Made by a program: the position numbers and the translations under genes. A model generated the notes under the pieces. That model was given only the letters and a program-made list of their open reading frames with translations, made no database searches and was not told where the DNA came from. A stretch of DNA of 64,000 nucleotides from an uncultured bacterium (GTDB taxonomy: Bacteria; Fidelibacterota; UBA2242; JAFGTP01): positions 13,321 to 77,320 of the forward strand of contig CAYYMT010000001.1 in the NCBI GenBank assembly GCA_964472715.1. The letters run 5' to 3'. Positions 5,084 to 18,818 of the stretch are shown here, in pieces. Numbering within the stretch: the stretch's first letter is position 1; every line of letters begins with the position of its first letter.

Positions 5084-6262
5084 TTAAAAACCTGTGGTGA
5101 GGCCTAATACAAACCGGTTGGCCTCATGTTCCATATCCATGGTGTATTCTCCGACAAGACGCAGATTGCGGGATAATAAATAGGTGGTGCTGAGGGTTGC
5201 GGAATGATAATCGGCATCATCCAGTTCAGAATCAATGCGATTATAAAGAAATGTGTAATAAAACCGTGAGCGGTCGTAATTTGGGCTGAAAATCAGTTCG
5301 GCAACAATACCATTGGTCATTATTTCATCACCATTCATAAACAGAGGATCGGAATCCCGGCGCATCAGTAACTGCCCGGTAAAGGCAAAGCGGTCATAGA
5401 CCATATTAACATCCGGTCCGTAATACAAAATTTCATTGGTCATATCTTTTGGCATTCCGGCAATATCCAGTTGGGCTTCTTTGCCGTAATAGACAAAACC
5501 GCCGACACCGATATTTTCACCGATTCCCTGGGCGATACGCAGGCCGAAATTTTTATATTTATCATTATCAAACATTTTTTCCGGGCCGGCGTGGGGTATG
5601 CCATTGCCGTTGACCACCATGGCGACTAAATCAGTGCCGGTTTTTTCAATGCCATAGGTCAAAATAATCCCGCGGTCATAGGCCAGAGTGGTTCCGGAAT
5701 TACCGATTTTTCGTTTATAGATCATATAATCTTCAAAAGTCAGCCGCAGTTCCCGTTTCATTAAGGGATCACAGGTTTGGAATTGCCCGACCATCAGATC
5801 CATTTCCAGTCCTTTGATATTATTAAAATGAATATATGCGTCTTCCAGCCCGGCCACTTCTCCCCTTTCTGAAAGATACATGTAGAAATAATAGCCAATA
5901 TTTTTGTATAATGAACCGCCGGACATCAATTTGACACCCCAGGGCGCCTGCAGATCATTTTTCACAGCGGTATTATCATCGGAAATGGCGTAAGCATCAA
6001 ACCGCACCGCCAGTGGAAAATCACGGCTGAGCCACATCAGATCATCACCGGCAGACACATAATCCCGCGCTCTTTCTTCTTCATCCAGTACAAATCCATT
6101 GCCGGCAAAATCATCACCATAGGGTTTTAACCTGGGAAAGGGATCATGACAGGTTGTGCAGGATATTTTATAACGCCGCGCAAAGGCCGGTATGGCATAA
6201 ACATTTTGCGCAATTAAAAACAACATCATAGTCACCATTAATAATAATTTAATTTTTCTCAT
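5084..6262 (-). CDS. Outer-membrane beta-barrel protein carrying an N-terminal CXXCH heme-binding motif (MtrB/PioB-like porin candidate)
   Basis: Signal peptide MRKIKLLLMVTMMLFLIAQNVYA, followed directly by ISCTTCHD. Alternating amphipathic beta-strand pattern throughout. C-terminal GLTTGF ends in Phe, which is the OMP sorting signature. Confidence 0.55.
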   Translation of the reverse strand: MRKIKLLLMVTMMLFLIAQNVYAIPAFARRYKISCTTCHDPFPRLKPYGDDFAGNGFVLDEEERARDYVSAGDDLMWLSRDFPLAVRFDAYAISDDNTAVKNDLQAPWGVKLMSGGSLYKNIGYYFYMYLSERGEVAGLEDAYIHFNNIKGLEMDLMVGQFQTCDPLMKRELRLTFEDYMIYKRKIGNSGTTLAYDRGIILTYGIEKTGTDLVAMVVNGNGIPHAGPEKMFDNDKYKNFGLRIAQGIGENIGVGGFVYYGKEAQLDIAGMPKDMTNEILYYGPDVNMVYDRFAFTGQLLMRRDSDPLFMNGDEIMTNGIVAELIFSPNYDRSRFYYTFLYNRIDSELDDADYHSATLSTTYLLSRNLRLVGEYTMDMEHEANRFVLGLTTGF

Positions 6263-7878: not shown

Positions 7879-8766
7879 ATGGGGACATTAATCATGAAAA
7901 AGAAATTACTGATCTTTTTTCAAATTTTAACACTGGTCATTATAATTTTATTGGCGATTTCTACTTTTTTCATTCAGCACCATGATCCGGCAAATTATAG
8001 TGATAATGCTATTGTCAGATTGTTATGTTTGGACCATTATTACAACTCCTGGCTGAATGTGAGCTTATTTATGCTCATGGCATTGCTGCTATTGTTTTCA
8101 CTCTTGAGTGGCGGAATAAAAAGTCGCTGCCAGCAAATATTACACATCACAATTTTAGGGTCATTTTTCATTATAATGTTTGATAAAGGTTTTAATCAGC
8201 GCACGATAGTACCCTTTCCTGAAAAAGAAACCATCAATTTTTCCGATATTATTAATGATCCCGATACGGACCATACAATTATCCTGGATAAATTTGAAAT
8301 CGATTTGCATACCGGTAGCCGGATGGTCAAAGCCTATGTCAGTCATTTGATCATCAATGAAATGGACACAGTACAATTGAAGGTGAACAAACCGGTCCAA
8401 ATCGGCAAATACAATCTCTACCAAAATGCCTATGACCGGGTACCTGTTTATGACTTAAAAATTAAGGATTATAATTATGGGATATCTCCTTTTGATACTT
8501 TATATGTGGATGGCAATCAAGTGTTTATTGACCTTTCGCAAGATTATAAACAGATGACCTTCCACTTCAATGAACAGGAACATGTCTTGTCGGTTAGAGG
8601 CGGACGCTTCCACATTGCGGAATTTCCGGTTGAAATTGAAATGGAGGGGATGAAGTATGTCAGCATTATTGAAGTCGCTGAAGTGCGTGGCATGGGGCTT
8701 TTGCTGATCTTTGGAATTGGCTATTTGATTTCCCTTGGCTATTGTTTTTGGAGGAAAAAATCATGA
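7879..8766 (+). CDS. ccsB: Cytochrome c biogenesis protein, ResB/CcsB-like (system II), short form
   Basis: N-terminal TM helices, a periplasmic domain and a C-terminal TM helix. The 3' end overlaps ccsA by 25 nt. It is divergent from the multiheme cytochrome. The assignment rests mostly on context. Confidence 0.45.
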   Translation: MGTLIMKKKLLIFFQILTLVIIILLAISTFFIQHHDPANYSDNAIVRLLCLDHYYNSWLNVSLFMLMALLLLFSLLSGGIKSRCQQILHITILGSFFIIMFDKGFNQRTIVPFPEKETINFSDIINDPDTDHTIILDKFEIDLHTGSRMVKAYVSHLIINEMDTVQLKVNKPVQIGKYNLYQNAYDRVPVYDLKIKDYNYGISPFDTLYVDGNQVFIDLSQDYKQMTFHFNEQEHVLSVRGGRFHIAEFPVEIEMEGMKYVSIIEVAEVRGMGLLLIFGIGYLISLGYCFWRKKS

Positions 8767-9518
8767 TCTATGAAACATATTTACTGCTGGCAGCCGCCTT
8801 TAGTTTTTTAATCGCGCTAATTTTTAGTATTAATCTGAACAAAGAATATACCGGCCGTGTGTTCATCTTTTTGGGAATTGCTTTGCAATTACTTTTGTTG
8901 ATCCTCCGATCTTATTACGCCAAGCATCCGCCTTTTACCAACCTTTATGAAACAATGATTCTGCTGCCTTTCCTCTTTTCCCTGCGATTGGTTTTCTGGA
9001 AGGAACAGGTGAAAGGCAATATTCAATATGGCGTAATTGGTATCATTCTGTTGCTGGATGTTATCGCCATCATGATGCCGGAACATTTGAAAATCATCAA
9101 ACCCCTGATGCCGGCCTTGAATAGTTTCTGGATGTATATCCATGTTCCCGCCTATTTTATTGCTTACGCTTCGATGCTGGTTGCCACAGTACTGGCAATA
9201 TTATTACTGGCACGCAAAGATGACCGGAATATACTGGCAAAAAAACTGGATGGCGAGGTTAAAATCGCTTTCTTCTTTCTGAATGCCGGTATGATCACCG
9301 GCGCCATCTGGGCCTATTATAGTTGGGGAACTTACTGGGGTTGGGATCCTAAGGAGGTTTGGTCGCTGATCAATATTTTGGTGCTCTCTTATTATTTTCA
9401 TATCAATAAAAAAGGGGTAATACCCAAAGCCGTCATTGTGATTATAACCTTACTGACGATTATTTTTACTTATATTGGTGTGACTTTTATTTTACCGGGA
9501 CTGCATAGTTATACATAA
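8742..9518 (+). CDS. ccsA: Cytochrome c-type biogenesis protein CcsA/ResC (system II heme handling)
   Basis: Polytopic membrane protein with the tryptophan-rich WWD motif WGTYWGWDPKEVWSL. Confidence 0.8.
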   Translation: MFLEEKIMIYETYLLLAAAFSFLIALIFSINLNKEYTGRVFIFLGIALQLLLLILRSYYAKHPPFTNLYETMILLPFLFSLRLVFWKEQVKGNIQYGVIGIILLLDVIAIMMPEHLKIIKPLMPALNSFWMYIHVPAYFIAYASMLVATVLAILLLARKDDRNILAKKLDGEVKIAFFFLNAGMITGAIWAYYSWGTYWGWDPKEVWSLINILVLSYYFHINKKGVIPKAVIVIITLLTIIFTYIGVTFILPGLHSYT

Positions 9519-9916: not shown

Positions 9917-11749
9917 TTACCTGTTATGTAAACATATCCATATTTTTTCAGCCAGTTTCGGGCCGATTCCTTCCACATCACAGAGATCCTCAACTGACAG
10001 CGCTTTGATTCTCTCAATTGATTTATAGTGATTATACAGCGCCAGTTTCTTCTTCTCACCTAAACCGGGGATGTCATCCAGGATCGATCTGACAGCCGCC
10101 TTATTACGGGTTTTCCGGTGATAGGTAATGGCAAACCGGTGGGATTCGTCACGAATACGCTGCAACAAGGTCAGCGCCGGGTTATCTTTCGCTAAAATAA
10201 TCGGCTCAGATTGTCCGGGACGGAATATCTCCTCCAGCCGTTTTGCTATTCCGATGATTGGAATTTCATCCAGTTCCAGGGTATTTAATTCATATTTTGC
10301 CGCGGACAATTGCCCTTTGCCGCCGTCGATTAAGATAAGATCGGGCAATTCCAGGTTTTCTTTAAGAACCCGTGTATACCGGCGCTTCACCACTTCCGCC
10401 ATGGAGGCGAAATCATTGGCTCCTTTTACTGTCTTAATTCGATATTTGCGGTACTGACTTTTTTTAGCGGCACCATTGACAAAACAAACCATTGAAGCGA
10501 CTTTATACCGGCCGCTAATATTAGAAATATCAAACCCTTCAATTCGACGAGGCAAATCCTTTAGATTAAGTGATTCTTTTAATTTACTGATAGTCAGAGG
10601 TGTATAATTTTCAAACTTATTCTTCTTCGCGATATATTCTTTCAGTTTTAATTGAGCATTTTTTTCCGCCATTCCCAGTAACCGGCTTTTACTTTTACGG
10701 GTTCCCTTCAGAATTTTCACAGCTTTTCCGGCTCTCTGTTTTAACCAGTCATTCAGCAGCTCCCGATTTTCCGGAAGTTCTTCAACAATGATTTCATTAG
10801 GAAAATTTTGGGTATTTGCATAGTAACTTTGGATGAAATTTTCAAGGACAATAGTATAATTGTCCTCATTTTTACAATCCAGGAAGAATGAATCCTGGTT
10901 GATCACTTTTCCCTGCCGGATTTTTAGCAAAATTGCACAGGCTTTTTCCTCGTCAATGGAAATATTGACCAGATCACGGTCTTTCAAATCAGTATCTTCC
11001 ACTACCTGACGTCTATAGAGGTTGTTAATCAACTTGATGTTATCCCGGTACTTAGCCGCTAATTCAAATTTCATTGCACCTGCCGCTTCTTTCATTCGTT
11101 TCTCAAAATACGCCAGCACCTCATCTGTTTTTCCATTGAGAAAGTCTTCAATCTTATTGATCATCTCAATATAATGATCGCGGCTAATATTCTTAATACA
11201 AGGCGCTTCGCAGCGGTTAATATGAAAATTCAAGCAGACTTTCTGATGGTCGGGGCCGGTATTTTCCGGGGTTAATTTCCGGTTGCACCGCCGCACAGGA
11301 AATATTTTTTTAATCAGATTGATAGTGTTTTTCAACTTTCGCGATTCCGTATAGGGACCGAAGTATTTTCCGCCATCATCCTCTAACTTTCTGGTAGTAA
11401 ACACCCTGGGATAATAATCATTGGTGATTTTTACGTAGGGAAAGGTTTTGTCATCGCGTAAAAGGATATTGTATTTTGGTTTATGCTCCTTAATGAGATT
11501 ATTTTCCAGTATCAGGGCATCAATTTCTGAATTTGTTATGATAAATTCCACATCAGCAATATTACGTACCAGTTTACGGGTTTTCAAATCTTTGGAAGAA
11601 GTATTTATAAAATAGGAATTTACCCGTTTTTTAAGGTTTCGCGCTTTACCAATGTATATAATTTTACCCTTTTGATTTTTATAAAGGTAACAGCCGGATT
11701 CTACCGGGGCATTTTTTATTTTTTCTTTTAAATGATCATTCTGCAACAA
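9917..11749 (-). CDS. uvrC: Excinuclease ABC subunit C
   Basis: 610 aa. N-terminal GIY-YIG motif GCYLYKNQKGKIIYIGKARNLKKRVNSY. Length and the C-terminal HhH region are typical of UvrC. Confidence 0.9.
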   Translation of the reverse strand: MLQNDHLKEKIKNAPVESGCYLYKNQKGKIIYIGKARNLKKRVNSYFINTSSKDLKTRKLVRNIADVEFIITNSEIDALILENNLIKEHKPKYNILLRDDKTFPYVKITNDYYPRVFTTRKLEDDGGKYFGPYTESRKLKNTINLIKKIFPVRRCNRKLTPENTGPDHQKVCLNFHINRCEAPCIKNISRDHYIEMINKIEDFLNGKTDEVLAYFEKRMKEAAGAMKFELAAKYRDNIKLINNLYRRQVVEDTDLKDRDLVNISIDEEKACAILLKIRQGKVINQDSFFLDCKNEDNYTIVLENFIQSYYANTQNFPNEIIVEELPENRELLNDWLKQRAGKAVKILKGTRKSKSRLLGMAEKNAQLKLKEYIAKKNKFENYTPLTISKLKESLNLKDLPRRIEGFDISNISGRYKVASMVCFVNGAAKKSQYRKYRIKTVKGANDFASMAEVVKRRYTRVLKENLELPDLILIDGGKGQLSAAKYELNTLELDEIPIIGIAKRLEEIFRPGQSEPIILAKDNPALTLLQRIRDESHRFAITYHRKTRNKAAVRSILDDIPGLGEKKKLALYNHYKSIERIKALSVEDLCDVEGIGPKLAEKIWICLHNR

Positions 11750-12060
11750 TTAATATTCTCCTGATATTGCTGTAAATTACTGAAACTTTATTTATTTAAC
11801 AAAGGTTTGACAAAATGACAGACAAAAAATTCACTTTAAATATTTATCGTAACCTACTCATTTAAAGTATATTAAATTTATTAACTGTCAAGATCTTCAA
11901 GTGTTTTTATTATGTATGGTTTTTCCGTGCGTTGGCACTCATAGTTTTTGTTTTTTTAATTATGAAAATTTTTAAATTGATCTGTACGCTTGTTCTTCTG
12001 ACATTATAAAAAATTATCATTAAAAAAGGTAAATAACTGATGTTAAGAATTTTATATTGT

Positions 12061-12087
12061 TTGAGATGCTACCCAAAATGGTATAAT
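12061..12087 (+). promoter_or_regulatory. Sigma70-type promoter with an extended -10 (TTGAGA, 15 nt spacer, TGgTATAAT)
   Basis: TTGAGA at 12061-12066 and TGGTATAAT at 12079-12087, inside the ORF-free tract. Transcription would start at ~12094 and run into the palindrome at 12126. Confidence 0.4.
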
Positions 12088-12125
12088 CATTATTAAAATT
12101 CGAATCTATTTCATATTTCACTGTA

Positions 12126-12147
12126 GTGGACAATTCGAATTGTCCAC
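12126..12147. promoter_or_regulatory. Perfect 22-bp palindrome GTGGACAATTCGAATTGTCCAC (candidate operator or RNA hairpin)
   Basis: The sequence and its reverse complement are identical. It sits ~30 nt downstream of the predicted promoter and just upstream of a second TTGACA...TATAAA-like element. Confidence 0.5.
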
Positions 12148-12975
12148 AAGGTTTGACAGAGCCTCGAGTTTATAAAATTTACCGTTTTGGGGGAAGCTTA
12201 GCGAAAACAGAGGCAGTTGTTTATCTTTTCAGGTAATATTTTTTAACCAAGGAAAAGTGAAGATCGTTAGTTTTAATCAACCACTACAATCCAACAAATA
12301 TCATGTAATCTCACAGTTGTTTTTACTATAGGTAATCCGTATTACCACGTTTTACAAGTAAAGAAGAACAAAATCCAAAAATAACAACTGGTCCACCAGA
12401 CATGTAGGTTGTCAATTACTGAGTGTATATCTTTTAAGATACCAGATTGTTATAATATTTCAAATATAACTATATATTACTGTTTTTAACTTCAATCAAA
12501 CTCTATAATAGTTTGATATATAGTTTATTAAAGAATTTGGATAAAGTTAAAGTATATATGCGTTTTATTTGGATGATTTTAGTTTATTATACTGGCTGAT
12601 ACCGTGGAATTTTAAGACTCCTCTCCTACTCCCTGTTATTTTAAAATTACCTGGTTACTATTTTGGTTGATTTTTTCTTCCCTGGTTTTAGTCTGATGAT
12701 TTATAGGTACTTTTTTTGTACTGTAGATGACATTTCCGATTGTCATATTTCGGGTTATTTCATGTGACCACGAATTTTATACGAACAAGTATCCGGATGG
12801 CTATAAACAAGACATGCAAAAAGATTTTTTTCGCACGTAAAGAGGGACTTTATGAGATTTATTTGATTTATTAGAGGAGAGATTTAATTACAGGCCACCA
12901 GAGAAACGATCTCACTATGGCCTGTATTCTAAGTTGGAATTTTTGAAATCTTAAATTGATTTATGACAAAATATT

Positions 12976-13359
12976 TCATTTTGGAAAGAAAATTTTGTCC
13001 AAACTAAATTTTCCTGAACCTTTGGCGGCGATAAACAAAAAAACGAAACAGTAGAGTGCCGCTAATTCTCCCCCATTTTGAATCGGCAGCAGGGCATTGG
13101 TTCCATGCGCCATCCAATAGGCAAAAGCCATCAGGCCACTAGCCAGAAACGCAGCCCAGCGTGTCAGGAATCCGGCCATTACAAATAAGCCGCCAATGAG
13201 TTCTATCCCCCCGGCAATATATTTTACCATTGCAGGCGCGCTATTGGAAGAGGGCGGAAATCCTAATAATTTTTGACTACCATGCCATAATAATAAAAAT
13301 CCCGCGACAATCCTGAGCGCAACATAAATTTCTTCTTCATACTTTTTTAAAAACGTCAT
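12976..13359 (-). CDS. DoxX-family membrane protein
   Basis: 127 aa with 3-4 TM segments. ALRIVAGFLLLWHGSQKL and the C-terminal hydrophobic helices are typical of DoxX. Confidence 0.6.
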   Translation of the reverse strand: MTFLKKYEEEIYVALRIVAGFLLLWHGSQKLLGFPPSSNSAPAMVKYIAGGIELIGGLFVMAGFLTRWAAFLASGLMAFAYWMAHGTNALLPIQNGGELAALYCFVFLFIAAKGSGKFSLDKIFFPK

Positions 13360-13688
13360 TGCATTCCTCCCTATTTTTCATGTCAGATATGTATTTATTA
13401 AATTTTTACTTCTTCTTCCAGTTTATATTAAATTTTTTTGAAAACCACTTCTATTATCTTAAGAATGGAATACAAGACTCATGAAATGGCGTCCATTTCG
13501 CATAAACATCACCCTTTAGTGGCTGTCAGATCGCAAGGGTATACTGTATTATAAATTTCGGAGATCTTCCAAAACTCAGATATTTTTTTGTTGACTGAAA
13601 AATTAAAAACCCAAAAAAGTCCTTTTATTTTTATTTTTCCGGCAATATATTTAGTTGATGTTACCGATAACATTAGAAATAACAAGGG

Positions 13689-16379
13689 ATGAATATGAAA
13701 AAAATTTGTATCTTAGCATTAACGATCATTACCGGAGGTATGCTGATGGCTTCTGAAAATTTTCAAACAAGTTTAGCGACTAACTGGCAATTATTTTCAT
13801 CTGAAAATATTGAACAAACAGGTGATGTAATTTCTACAATTACCTTTAAACCAATTGAATATTACCCAACTAATATTCCAAACACAGTAATGGCGACACT
13901 GGTGGAAAATGGCGAATATGAAAACATTTTCTTTGGAAAAAATCTCGAAAAAGTCGATAAATCCCGCTTTGAAAAGCACTGGTGGTACCGCAAAACCTTT
14001 GATTTCGATCAACAGGACATGGAAAATATTCAGTTGATCTTCCAGGGACTAAACTACAAAGCAAACATTTGGCTGAACGGAGAAAAAATCGGAGACTCCT
14101 CGAAAATTGAACAGTCTTTTCGTATATTCAATTTTAATGTTACCGGTAAACTCAAATCTAAAAATAATGTCCTGGCAGTCGAAATTATTCCTCCTGTAAA
14201 AGGTGATCTGGCAATCGGATTTGTAGACTGGAATCCCTGGCCCCCGGATAATAATATGGGGATTTGGCGACCCGTAAAGTTACAATTTTCACGTGCTGTT
14301 TCCATGGAAAAAACCTTTGTCCAAACCGACGTTAATACCACGACACTCGAAGAAGCTGACATAAAAATTTCAACTACAGTAAAAAATCATTCCGATAAAA
14401 ATGAAACTGTCACCATTGCCGGAAAATTTGATAATATTTCTTTTTCCAAAAAACTGACCTTAAAGCCAAGTGAAAAACAAAAAGTAAATTTCTGTTCAAA
14501 GGATTATCCACAATTACATATAGAAAACCCAAAACTCTGGTGGCCCAATGGCCTGGGGGAACAACCCCTTTATGACCTGAAACTTACCGCAACCGCAAAC
14601 AAAACCCTCTCTGATATGGAAACTGTGCGTTTTGGCGTCCGTGAATTTGGTGCTTACATGAACAATCTTGGTCATAAGCAATACACCGTCAATGGCAAAC
14701 GTGTCCTTATAAAAAGCGCCGGCTGGGTGGATGATATTTTTCTCAATGATACGGACCGGAAAGTCCGCGATCAACTGGCCTATGTCAAGCACATGAATCT
14801 CAATTCTGTCCGTCTGGAAGGCTTCTGGGGAAGCAGTAAAGCCCTTTATGAAGCAGCTGATGAACTGGGGCTGATGCTGATGATCGGCTGGAGTTGTCAC
14901 TGGGAATGGGAGGGCTATTGCGGTCGGCCTGAAACCCAATATCTCTCGATCCATACCAAAGAAGATCAGGCCCTTCATACGCAAGCCTATATAGACCAGG
15001 TGGAATGGCTGAGAAATCATGCCGCCATTTTTACCTGGGTGTTTGGCAGTGACAAACTTCTTCGTCCTGAATTTGAAAAATCACTGACGGCAGCAATTGT
15101 TGACGCCGATCCTACCCGTCCGGTTTTATCCACCTGCAAAATGATGGATTATGATGTGGCATACACAATGAAAAACAGTTGGAACTATGATGAGGTTGAA
15201 GATTACCCGGATTTCGACGGCTTCCCCAATAATCCAAACTATAGTGAAATCTCCGGCAATCCCGGCGTAAAGATGTCCGGCCCTTACGCTTACACACCGC
15301 CGAAATACTGGTATGAAAACCGTAAACTCGGCGGCGCTTACGGATTCAACACAGAGACCGGTCCCGGCGCTCAGGTTCCGCCTCTGGAATCCCTGAAAAA
15401 AATGATTCCCAAAGACAAACTCTGGCCGGTAACCAATGATGTTTTTCAATTCCATAATGGCAGGAATGAGTTTCAGACCCTTGACCGTTTTCTCAATGCC
15501 TTCAATAAAAAATATGGTGAATTTGACAATATCGATGAATTCGCAAGCTACTGTCAGTTATCCAATTACGAAACCATGCGTCCGATGTATGAAGCCTTCC
15601 AGGTGAACCGCCCGGTTGCCACAGGAATCGTGCAGTGGATGCTTAATTCCGCCTGGCCGGAAACCTTCTGGCAATTATACGACTGGTATCTGATGCCCAA
15701 TGGCGCTTTTTACGGGGCTTTGCATGGTTGCCGGCCGATAAATATCGCGTTCAATTATGACGACAGAAATATCTATGCTGTGAATGAAAAACTTCATGCC
15801 CTGGAAAACTTAAGGGCAGAAATTCAGGTATTCGATATTAATTCCAACCTACTGCTATCCCATGCGACAAAAGTCAGTATTCCGGCCAATGAATCAGCAT
15901 TGATATATGACATGCCGCATATTGAAGGACTTACAAAAACCTACTTCCTGTCCTTAAAATTAAAAAATGATCAGAATGACCTGGTGGCTGATAATTTTTA
16001 CTGGCTCTCAACCCGTGAAGCGGAACTGGATTATAAAAATTCCGTCTGGTTTTTCACACCAATGACGCAATACGAAGATTTCACAGCTCTTCGCAATATG
16101 GATAGAGTGAAAATTCAAGAGTCCCATAACTTTACGAAAACCAAAGAGGGAACTGAACTATCAGTGACGTTCGAAAATCCAAGCGATAAGATCGCCTTTT
16201 TTATTGAATCGAAAATTGTCGACAAACAAACCGGCGAATCAATCCTGCCGGTATTTTTCAGCGACAATTATATCTCTCTCCTGCCGGGAGAAAAACGAAC
16301 ACTTACGGCACATATAAATGGAAGGGATCTCAACGGGAAAACTCCGGTGTTCAAATACTCCGGGATAAACCTTAAATAA
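13689..16379 (+). CDS. Glycoside hydrolase family 2 (beta-mannosidase / exo-beta-glucosaminidase-like), secreted
   Basis: 896 aa with a signal peptide. GH2 N-terminal sugar-binding region WWYRKTFD...LIFQGLNYKANIWLNGEKIG. TIM-barrel region with NSVRLEGFWG and WSCHWEW. Confidence 0.65.
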   Translation: MNMKKICILALTIITGGMLMASENFQTSLATNWQLFSSENIEQTGDVISTITFKPIEYYPTNIPNTVMATLVENGEYENIFFGKNLEKVDKSRFEKHWWYRKTFDFDQQDMENIQLIFQGLNYKANIWLNGEKIGDSSKIEQSFRIFNFNVTGKLKSKNNVLAVEIIPPVKGDLAIGFVDWNPWPPDNNMGIWRPVKLQFSRAVSMEKTFVQTDVNTTTLEEADIKISTTVKNHSDKNETVTIAGKFDNISFSKKLTLKPSEKQKVNFCSKDYPQLHIENPKLWWPNGLGEQPLYDLKLTATANKTLSDMETVRFGVREFGAYMNNLGHKQYTVNGKRVLIKSAGWVDDIFLNDTDRKVRDQLAYVKHMNLNSVRLEGFWGSSKALYEAADELGLMLMIGWSCHWEWEGYCGRPETQYLSIHTKEDQALHTQAYIDQVEWLRNHAAIFTWVFGSDKLLRPEFEKSLTAAIVDADPTRPVLSTCKMMDYDVAYTMKNSWNYDEVEDYPDFDGFPNNPNYSEISGNPGVKMSGPYAYTPPKYWYENRKLGGAYGFNTETGPGAQVPPLESLKKMIPKDKLWPVTNDVFQFHNGRNEFQTLDRFLNAFNKKYGEFDNIDEFASYCQLSNYETMRPMYEAFQVNRPVATGIVQWMLNSAWPETFWQLYDWYLMPNGAFYGALHGCRPINIAFNYDDRNIYAVNEKLHALENLRAEIQVFDINSNLLLSHATKVSIPANESALIYDMPHIEGLTKTYFLSLKLKNDQNDLVADNFYWLSTREAELDYKNSVWFFTPMTQYEDFTALRNMDRVKIQESHNFTKTKEGTELSVTFENPSDKIAFFIESKIVDKQTGESILPVFFSDNYISLLPGEKRTLTAHINGRDLNGKTPVFKYSGINLK

Positions 16380-18365: not shown

Positions 18366-18818
18366 TCAGGATTTATTATCCAGCAATGTGTTCATTTTTT
18401 TTATGTTATTCACCAGCCGTTGAATGATCTTATCCTTGATTTTATTTTTTATGGAAAGATGAAGTCGTTCCATGACAATATCATCAATTTTCATTACCAG
18501 GGAATCTTCATTGGCTATCACCGTTGCCGATCTGGGCTCGCGGGTCAGGAAAGACATTTCCCCAAAAAAACTGCCGGCGTTAATTCTTTTGACAATATTA
18601 TTGTCCGTTACAATCGAGACGGAGCCTGACAGGACAATATAGAAATCAAAATCCCGCTTTCCTTTACGGATTATGGGTTCGGCTTTATCATACAGAAAAA
18701 CTTCGGTTTCCCGAATCAGCATCCGTCGCAAATCCAGTTTTGAAAAATTCTCAAAAAAATCCAGCCGTGACATTATATTGAGCATTTTTTCCGTATCAAT
18801 AGTAATATTTTTTGGCAT
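18366..18818 (-). CDS. Stand-alone cyclic-nucleotide-binding domain protein
   Basis: 150 aa. FFGEMSFLTREPRSATVIA matches the cNMP-binding PBC motif FGE...R.A. There is no DNA-binding or other output domain. Confidence 0.65.
   Translation of the reverse strand: MPKNITIDTEKMLNIMSRLDFFENFSKLDLRRMLIRETEVFLYDKAEPIIRKGKRDFDFYIVLSGSVSIVTDNNIVKRINAGSFFGEMSFLTREPRSATVIANEDSLVMKIDDIVMERLHLSIKNKIKDKIIQRLVNNIKKMNTLLDNKS

Follow-up and report, generated by a model that had tools for sequence, protein, structure and literature searches.

A long, insertion-tolerant noncoding spacer before uvrC in a Fidelibacterota subclade, with a candidate small RNA or regulatory module

Within a 64-kb window of contig CAYYMT010000001.1 from an uncultured bacterium (the window being the whole stretch of 64,000 nt analyzed here), an intergenic tract free of open reading frames (ORFs) occupies positions 11750-12975, between the start of uvrC at 11749 and the stop of a DoxX gene at 12976, both on the minus strand. 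The tract is best seen as a long-lived, insertion-tolerant spacer before uvrC that is specific to a small subclade of the Fidelibacterota (Marinimicrobia) and consists mostly of fast-evolving AT-rich DNA, with three proposed functional islands: the uvrC promoter region, a module of ~190 nt and a hairpin 3' of DoxX. We hold a spacer around a lineage-specific small RNA or regulatory module to be the best reading, tentatively and at a probability of about 0.4; judged by its sequence, the locus probably holds a new, unclassified small regulatory RNA or cis-regulatory module. A preliminary description of this DNA had proposed a candidate noncoding RNA or regulatory locus. A noncoding functional locus is supported by our analysis, a long ORF-free stretch preceding uvrC in every close relative examined, without coding signal and with a GC well under that of coding sequence, but the promoter-operator model attached to that proposal is not supported by conservation.

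Length is what sets the tract apart. It measures 1226 nt, the next-longest gaps in the window being ~500 nt, and its longest ORF encodes 44 aa, in agreement with the earlier statement that no frame reaches 60 codons. The tract had also been put forward as AT-rich, which is correct (GC 0.288, with flanking genes at ~0.40-0.43) but not special, as other intergenic stretches of the window range from 0.21 to 0.34; AT-richness is normal for intergenic DNA of the window, and length is the sole unusual property. It had further been placed downstream of uvrC, whereas it actually lies upstream, the gene (9917-11749, encoding UvrC domains) being on the minus strand and starting with a TTG at 11749, before which stands AGGAGA. 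The tract lies downstream of the DoxX gene (12976-13359, minus strand, 127 aa), beyond which a glycosidase gene of family GH2 runs on the plus strand from 13689.

UvrC relatives put the window in Candidatus Neomarinimicrobiota or Marinimicrobia, now Fidelibacterota (naming: PMC11652737). All close relatives with sequence reaching upstream of uvrC (UvrC 64-75% identical) have a long ORF-free, AT-rich stretch there: 873 nt in L001 (UvrC 72-73% identical), ~900 nt in L081 and L162, which represent one species (70-73%), and 1207 nt in L161 (75%), all with both flanking genes assembled, and at least 542 nt in L164 (64%) and at least 497 nt in L166 (72%), whose contigs end within the stretch. The gap before uvrC is just 168 nt in a relative with 57% UvrC identity, and the long noncoding stretch is therefore a stable trait of one subclade. 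Also compared were L163, L167 and L168, fragments of a 95% relative with contigs ending inside the tract and inside uvrC, and L169, with a DoxX 78% identical. The far-side neighbor varies, being a divergent GH2 gene in L001 and L081 and a co-directional DoxX gene in the window, L161, L167 and L169. Whole-tract alignments with relatives were essentially noise, the sequence being unalignable outside blocks, and in a 14-mer footprint against four relatives with shuffled controls only 11808-11829 and 12447-12472 matched several genomes. The conserved elements of the tract lie at 11806-11840 and 12447-12637, away from the segment (12061-12147) in which the preliminary description had seen a promoter and a palindrome.

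The larger of the two, the ~190-nt module (12447-12637), begins with an island, GTTATAATATTTCAAATATAAC (12449-12470, plus strand), containing a TATAAT at 12451-12456 that is preceded by TGt in the window, forming an extended -10 element. The island is identical to that of L001 at 19 of 19 positions. L001, L081/L162 and L164 each have a single occurrence of the pattern TATAATANTNCAAATAT, every time on the upstream side of uvrC and pointing the same way, and it is absent from the 161 other loci of the 165 uvrC loci compared. L166, which is outside those 165 loci, has the same island sequence, L169 has TATTAT, and an nhmmer profile of the island recovers clade members only. The 14 nt after the island -10 are conserved.

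The window and L169 align over the entire length of the module, which has four conserved blocks. Some 90-100 nt after the island stands GATAAAGTTAAAGTATAT (12540-12557, plus strand, with a TTAAAGT core), an 18-mer identical in L169; in an almost gapless five-genome alignment, TTAAAGT is found at the same distance (~+100) in L166 and L001, and L081 has TTAATTT. The following block, TTTTAGTTTATTATACT (12577-12593), reads AGTATAATAAAC on the minus strand and carries a TATAAT (12586-12591) facing the island; here TTAAAA-18-TATAAT, scoring 10/12, ranks first among the promoter-like sites of the tract. L169 and L166 share AGTATAATA, L161 and L081 have related forms of it, and the two conserved TATAAT motifs face each other at ~135 nt. 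The last block is a CU-rich box, CTCCTCTCCTACTCCCT (12618-12634, plus strand), the most C-rich pyrimidine 12-mer of the tract; in several tracts the corresponding 12-mer is the most C-rich of either strand. The box is made up of two copies of CUCCU plus CUCC, and CUCCU is the exact complement of AGGAG, a Shine-Dalgarno (SD) sequence common in the clade. Counted from the island TATAAT, comparable boxes are found at +167 to +182 in L161, L081 and L166, at ~+168 in L169 and at ~+155 in L001, so that in these five genomes and the window the C-rich pyrimidine box is always on the plus strand at +155 to +182; it is also retained in the 95% relative L167. In at least six species the module is oriented alike with respect to uvrC. 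Conservation extends to short stretches of sequence and to the order, spacing and strand in which they occur.

The other conserved element lies beside uvrC itself. A consensus scan finds a putative uvrC core promoter, TTGTCA-17-TAAAGT, at 11785-11813 (minus strand), whose TTGTCA hexamer is kept in L164, L161 and L166 and reads ATGTCA or AAGTCA in L081 and L001. Overlapping the putative -35 is a conserved motif, TGTCATTTTGTCA (11808-11820, minus strand), which is the only match to TGWCA-N3-TGTCA in the window and a candidate regulator site; its TTGTCA half coincides with the -35. The variants in relatives are TGACATATTGTCA (L081), TGACAAATTGTCA (L166), TGACTTTTTGTCA (L001), GACAAAATGTC (L161) and TGACAAAATGACA (L164, in plus orientation).

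How might the module work? It may be a small, weakly structured RNA gene, in which the conserved TATAAT at 12451-12456 is predicted to drive transcription of an RNA on the plus strand, pointing away from uvrC. The CU-rich box would pair with AGGAG ribosome-binding sites of putative targets and so regulate translation, in trans or on its own transcript, and the opposite-strand TATAAT at 12586-12591 may yield an overlapping antisense transcript. Two pairs of observations make us favor a small RNA. First, a LysM gene downstream of uvrC in relatives has a conserved TTGACA-17-TAAAAT promoter (TAATAT in L161) in three species (L001 ~12040-12108, L162 ~8060-8132 and L161 ~8050-8123), from which it follows that the clade uses canonical sigma-70-type promoters, and the 14 nt after the island -10 show the conservation expected at the 5' end of an RNA. 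(The Bacteroidetes-type motif TAnnTTTG was seen 7 times in sense and 2 times in antisense orientation in 41 upstream regions, which are small numbers.) Second, the CU-rich box is strictly strand-specific, and its CUCCU units complement the AGGAG of the clade exactly. The most detailed form of this proposal, an undescribed RNA family of the Fidelibacterota subclade comprising a sense/antisense pair from facing promoters, with a plus-strand RNA bearing a triple anti-SD box and anchored beside uvrC, we consider rather improbable; if true, the anchoring at uvrC would suggest a connection with how DNA-damage or stress genes are controlled.

C-rich or CU-rich trans-acting small RNAs are known to pair with Shine-Dalgarno regions, for example RsaE/RoxS of Bacillota. 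Like RNAs of that type, the module stands alone between genes, spans ~150-250 nt and has a conserved promoter-like -10, and, as read from DNA of six genomes, its conserved C-rich pyrimidine motif complements AGGAG. Unlike them, it has no Rfam match (RsaE included), no conserved hairpins presenting the C-rich motif and no recognizable terminator. The Rfam/Infernal scan that the preliminary description had proposed yielded no family in the window or in relatives: there were 0 hits at gathering thresholds in the 64-kb window, nothing beyond chance level at E up to 10 in 11500-13800, and none at E up to 1 in the tract of seven related loci. A 6S RNA was dismissed, as Rfam gave no 6S hit and the long hairpin of the module is significant in the window only. 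Cultured representatives of the abundant Fidelibacterota (Marinimicrobia/SAR406) are almost lacking, one isolate having been described in 2024 (PMC11652737), and a literature search found nothing on regulatory RNAs of the phylum. A module with an anti-SD box would rank among the first candidate riboregulators of the phylum and offers a concrete target for metatranscriptomes.

Several observations weigh against a small RNA or regulatory module as the core of the spacer. Only six or seven genomes are available, several of them as contig ends, and similarity between AT-rich sequences tends to look greater than it is. The profile misses the L161 copy of the island, whose site is doubtful; a conserved -35 is lacking upstream of the island, and the extended -10 TG is present only in the window and at that doubtful L161 site. 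Downstream of the CU box there is no canonical terminator. A long, imperfect AT-rich hairpin of ~90 nt (12470-12560) comes after the island and is significant only on the minus strand (z -6.8, also -3.4 and -5.2, vs -1.7 on the plus strand), and the equivalent hairpins in relatives are not, so that folding z-scores of the module are significant in the window only. RNAalifold on five genomes returned 0 consensus pairs on either strand, a weak test given that the alignment is poor outside the blocks. With no conserved structure, a conserved structured RNA cannot be claimed, and this lack is as compatible with a weakly structured RNA as with a DNA-level element.

Among the alternatives, the one that survives best would see the tract as mostly a graveyard of small mobile elements and indels, a functionless and harmless landing zone. 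As an account of the whole tract we think this somewhat unlikely; for the non-conserved parts it is compatible with our favored explanation. An insertion of ~192 nt in L167/L168, with 17-nt terminal inverted repeats (TIRs) and a TTAA duplication, corresponds to window position ~12953, where the window has the empty target site CTTAAAT (12950-12956). Copies of this element (~195 nt) lie at 3476-3676 in L167, at 3476-3676 in L168 and at 5027-5220 in L161, within the tract upstream of uvrC in both species; the L161 copy is 85% identical, in the opposite orientation and at another position in the tract, the genes of the species being ~70-75% identical. With TIRs CCTGAATTATTCATGAA (17-20 nt), a target duplication, a GC-rich hairpin core CCGATAGTTTCCGCAGGAAACGTATCGG and copies showing presence and absence, the element of L167/L168 and L161 resembles the miniature inverted-repeat transposable elements (MITEs) of bacterial intergenic regions. 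Unlike MITEs, the tract of the window has an empty site and no segment repeated elsewhere in the window or the fetched loci, and it therefore cannot be called one. In the 95% relative L167, ~125 nt of unrelated sequence stand in place of a segment of ~130 nt (12707-12835) that includes a degenerate second palindrome, ACTGTAGATGACATTTCCGATTGTC (12720-12744), and the flanks (12622-12706 and 12836-12950) align (blastn identities of 85% over 12622-12701 and 91% over 12827-12964). The stretches also vary in length, do not align outside the blocks and contain breaks in several assemblies. The suggestion of a mobile-element scar in the preliminary description is thus partly supported, by the insertion and the replacement seen in relatives but not by any repeated sequence in the window tract. 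A graveyard leaves unexplained both the conserved module and the long stretch in every close relative examined, against 168 nt in the distant one; no copy of any window-tract sequence was found elsewhere in the window or loci, and no transposase remnant by tblastx or Pfam. A blastn comparison of the tract with phage and plasmid sequences gave no match.

Instead of encoding an RNA, the conserved blocks could act purely at the DNA level, as protein-binding sites or promoter architecture for uvrC (and, ancestrally, for a divergent GH2 gene as well), with their spacing reflecting protein phasing. We judge this unlikely, though it accounts for short primary-sequence blocks at fixed spacing without conserved structure. 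It would also fit the partly palindromic island of L001, L164 and L166, the TTAAAGT-like motif that recurs, inverted, beside the uvrC promoter block, and the fact that the module stays on the uvrC side when the distal neighbor changes. Against it, the distance from the island to the uvrC start is variable, from ~240 to 700 nt, which is far for control of a bacterial promoter; the strand-specific CU-rich box is easier to explain as RNA, and there is no adjacent regulator gene.

The preliminary description itself had favored an extended -10 promoter at 12061-12087 driving an unannotated RNA, with a palindrome ~30 nt downstream serving as operator or RNA hairpin, a model that now appears doubtful at best. 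The elements are present as described. On the plus strand, TTGAGA (12061-12066) is followed after 15 nt by TGgTATAAT (12079-12087), a perfect match to the extended -10 motif TGnTATAAT, and the clade does use sigma-70-type promoters. The 22-bp palindrome GTGGACAATTCGAATTGTCCAC (12126-12147), with a GACA-N8-TGTC core and a TTCGAA center, is confirmed as perfect and statistically unusual: it is the sole perfect palindrome with arms of at least 8 in the window, and arms of at least 11 arose in 2 of 100 window shuffles and 0 of 1000 tract shuffles. GACA-N8-TGTC is mildly over-represented, with 3 occurrences in the window against 0.5 expected, two of them inside the tract. AATTCGAAT also occurs twice, 33 nt apart, at 12099-12107 just after the promoter-like -10 and at 12132-12140 in the center of the palindrome. 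The promoter had been called strong and near-consensus, a claim weakened by its spacer, as 15 nt is outside the usual 16-18 and the pairing was not called by the consensus scan; promoter-like sites as a whole are not enriched in 11500-13800 (15 vs 11.2 +/- 3.6 in shuffles). A second TTGACA...TATAAA-like element that had been reported nearby does exist, but direct reading of the sequence gives it a spacer of merely 12-14 nt.

Conservation speaks against this model, as neither element is detectable in any relative. For the promoter-like site, footprint and Smith-Waterman comparisons found no counterpart in L161, L001, L081, L164, L166 or L169, the region being unassembled in the 95% relative. 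The BLASTN comparison of the palindrome with related genomes that had been suggested earlier gave no homolog, nor did a k-mer footprint or Smith-Waterman alignment with shuffles (scores at or below control means), and the palindrome is absent from the viral contigs searched. A by-eye likeness of the palindrome region to a GC-richer inverted repeat in L161 was dropped because its Smith-Waterman score fell below shuffled means. The degenerate second copy lies in the segment replaced in the 95% relative, and the 25-nt repeat that it would form with the first (ACTGTAG..GACA..TGTC, ~600 nt apart, 12120-12144 vs 12720-12744) is at chance level in a tract-wide self-comparison. As RNA, the palindrome would fold into a hairpin of ~-13 kcal/mol on both strands, with no adjacent U-run on either and so not of the intrinsic-terminator type, and Rfam gave no hit. 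Compared with known systems, the region resembles an extended -10 sigma-70 promoter with a palindromic operator in having TGnTATAAT at 12079-12087 (and again at 12448-12456) and a palindrome ~30-50 nt after the first; it differs in the 15-nt -35 spacing, in the lack of conservation of the first site and the palindrome, and in having no cognate regulator gene nearby. Because of this lack of conservation and of an adjacent regulator gene, the simplest view of the segment 12061-12147, in the non-conserved part of the tract, is that of a protein-binding site specific to the lineage or of sequence acquired recently. The conspicuous promoter and palindrome have no detectable conserved counterpart, and the conserved part consists of plainer AT-rich blocks at a distance of 300 nt.

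Type I toxin-antitoxin loci such as par/Fst are convergent sense/antisense RNA pairs, and a locus of this kind, or a gene for a small hydrophobic protein with convergent promoters, is a further but very unlikely candidate. As in par/Fst, an AT-rich hairpin lies between the facing, conserved TATAAT motifs, which are ~135 nt apart, and on both strands it has U-rich runs beside it. In the window, L169, L001 and L161, the CU box is overlapped on the plus strand by ORFs of 33-57 aa that contain hydrophobic stretches. Unlike par/Fst, the locus is single copy and the module has no conserved small ORF or SD. We rejected the idea because the ORFs agree neither in their frame relative to the box nor in length (13-57 aa overall, with just 15-17 aa in L081 and L166) nor in start codon, and none has a Shine-Dalgarno sequence before it. 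A manual count of codon changes relative to L167 gave 3 synonymous and 4 non-synonymous substitutions, hence no synonymous bias.

A decayed pseudogene or a replication origin or terminus site, despite the length of the ORF-free tract and a TTGTCCACA within the palindrome that is one mismatch from a DnaA box, can be set aside as highly improbable: a recent pseudogene does not fit a GC of 0.29 against ~0.40 in coding sequence, and tblastx and Pfam were negative (blastx against the full protein database was not run), whereas oriC or dif does not fit the unenriched DnaA boxes (2 with one mismatch in the tract; 30 in the window vs 20 +/- 5 expected, judged no enrichment), the lack of a GC-skew switch and the unchanged gene orientation, the genes on both sides being mostly on the minus strand. 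A remnant of a known gene, which the preliminary description had named as the finding that would turn the tract into a pseudogene, was not seen by tblastx among the tracts, where only short, stop-ridden matches without coding signal appeared, and eight small ORFs had no Pfam hit.

The third proposed island of the spacer, 54-87 nt after the DoxX stop, is a strong nested hairpin at 12889-12922. It had been noted earlier as a hairpin with a 7-bp stem and proves to be real, with an outer stem of 9-10 bp and an inner GAGA/UCUC stem (z -4.1 and -4.2 on the two strands). L167/L168 retain it, with an A-to-G change that replaces a C.A mismatch by a ninth pair, C-G, and its inner GAGAAACGATCTC hairpin is kept in the more distant L169. 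With no adjacent U-run it does not qualify as an intrinsic terminator; the lone terminator-like site found by the scan in 11500-13800 is at 12812-12838 on the minus strand.

Assemblies of relatives often break in or beside the tract, as at the end of L167 (equivalent to window 12622), the end of L168 (~12780), the end of L164 (in the island), the start of L163 (inside uvrC) and the P0006 contig (272 nt upstream of uvrC), which suggests repeats or low coverage of AT-rich DNA. On the reverse strand of L164, positions 283-372 of the upstream stretch hold three ATGCAGG repeats ~45 nt apart, in a locally GC-richer patch between uvrC and the island. On the other side of uvrC, the LysM gene of relatives is absent from the window, in which a cytochrome c biogenesis pair (ResB/CcsA-like) converges on uvrC instead. 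Elsewhere in the window, the minus strand at 18366-18818 encodes a 150-aa protein with a cyclic-nucleotide-binding domain only, the DNA-binding half of Crp/Fnr regulators being apparently missing. Finally, a near-palindromic TGTTACCGATAACA is kept 35-45 nt upstream of the GH2 start in three species (window ~13655-13668 and, on the reverse strand, L001 ~9135-9150 and L081 ~5128-5141), and in sequence it looks like an operator of the LacI/CcpA type (TGnnAnCGnTnnCA).

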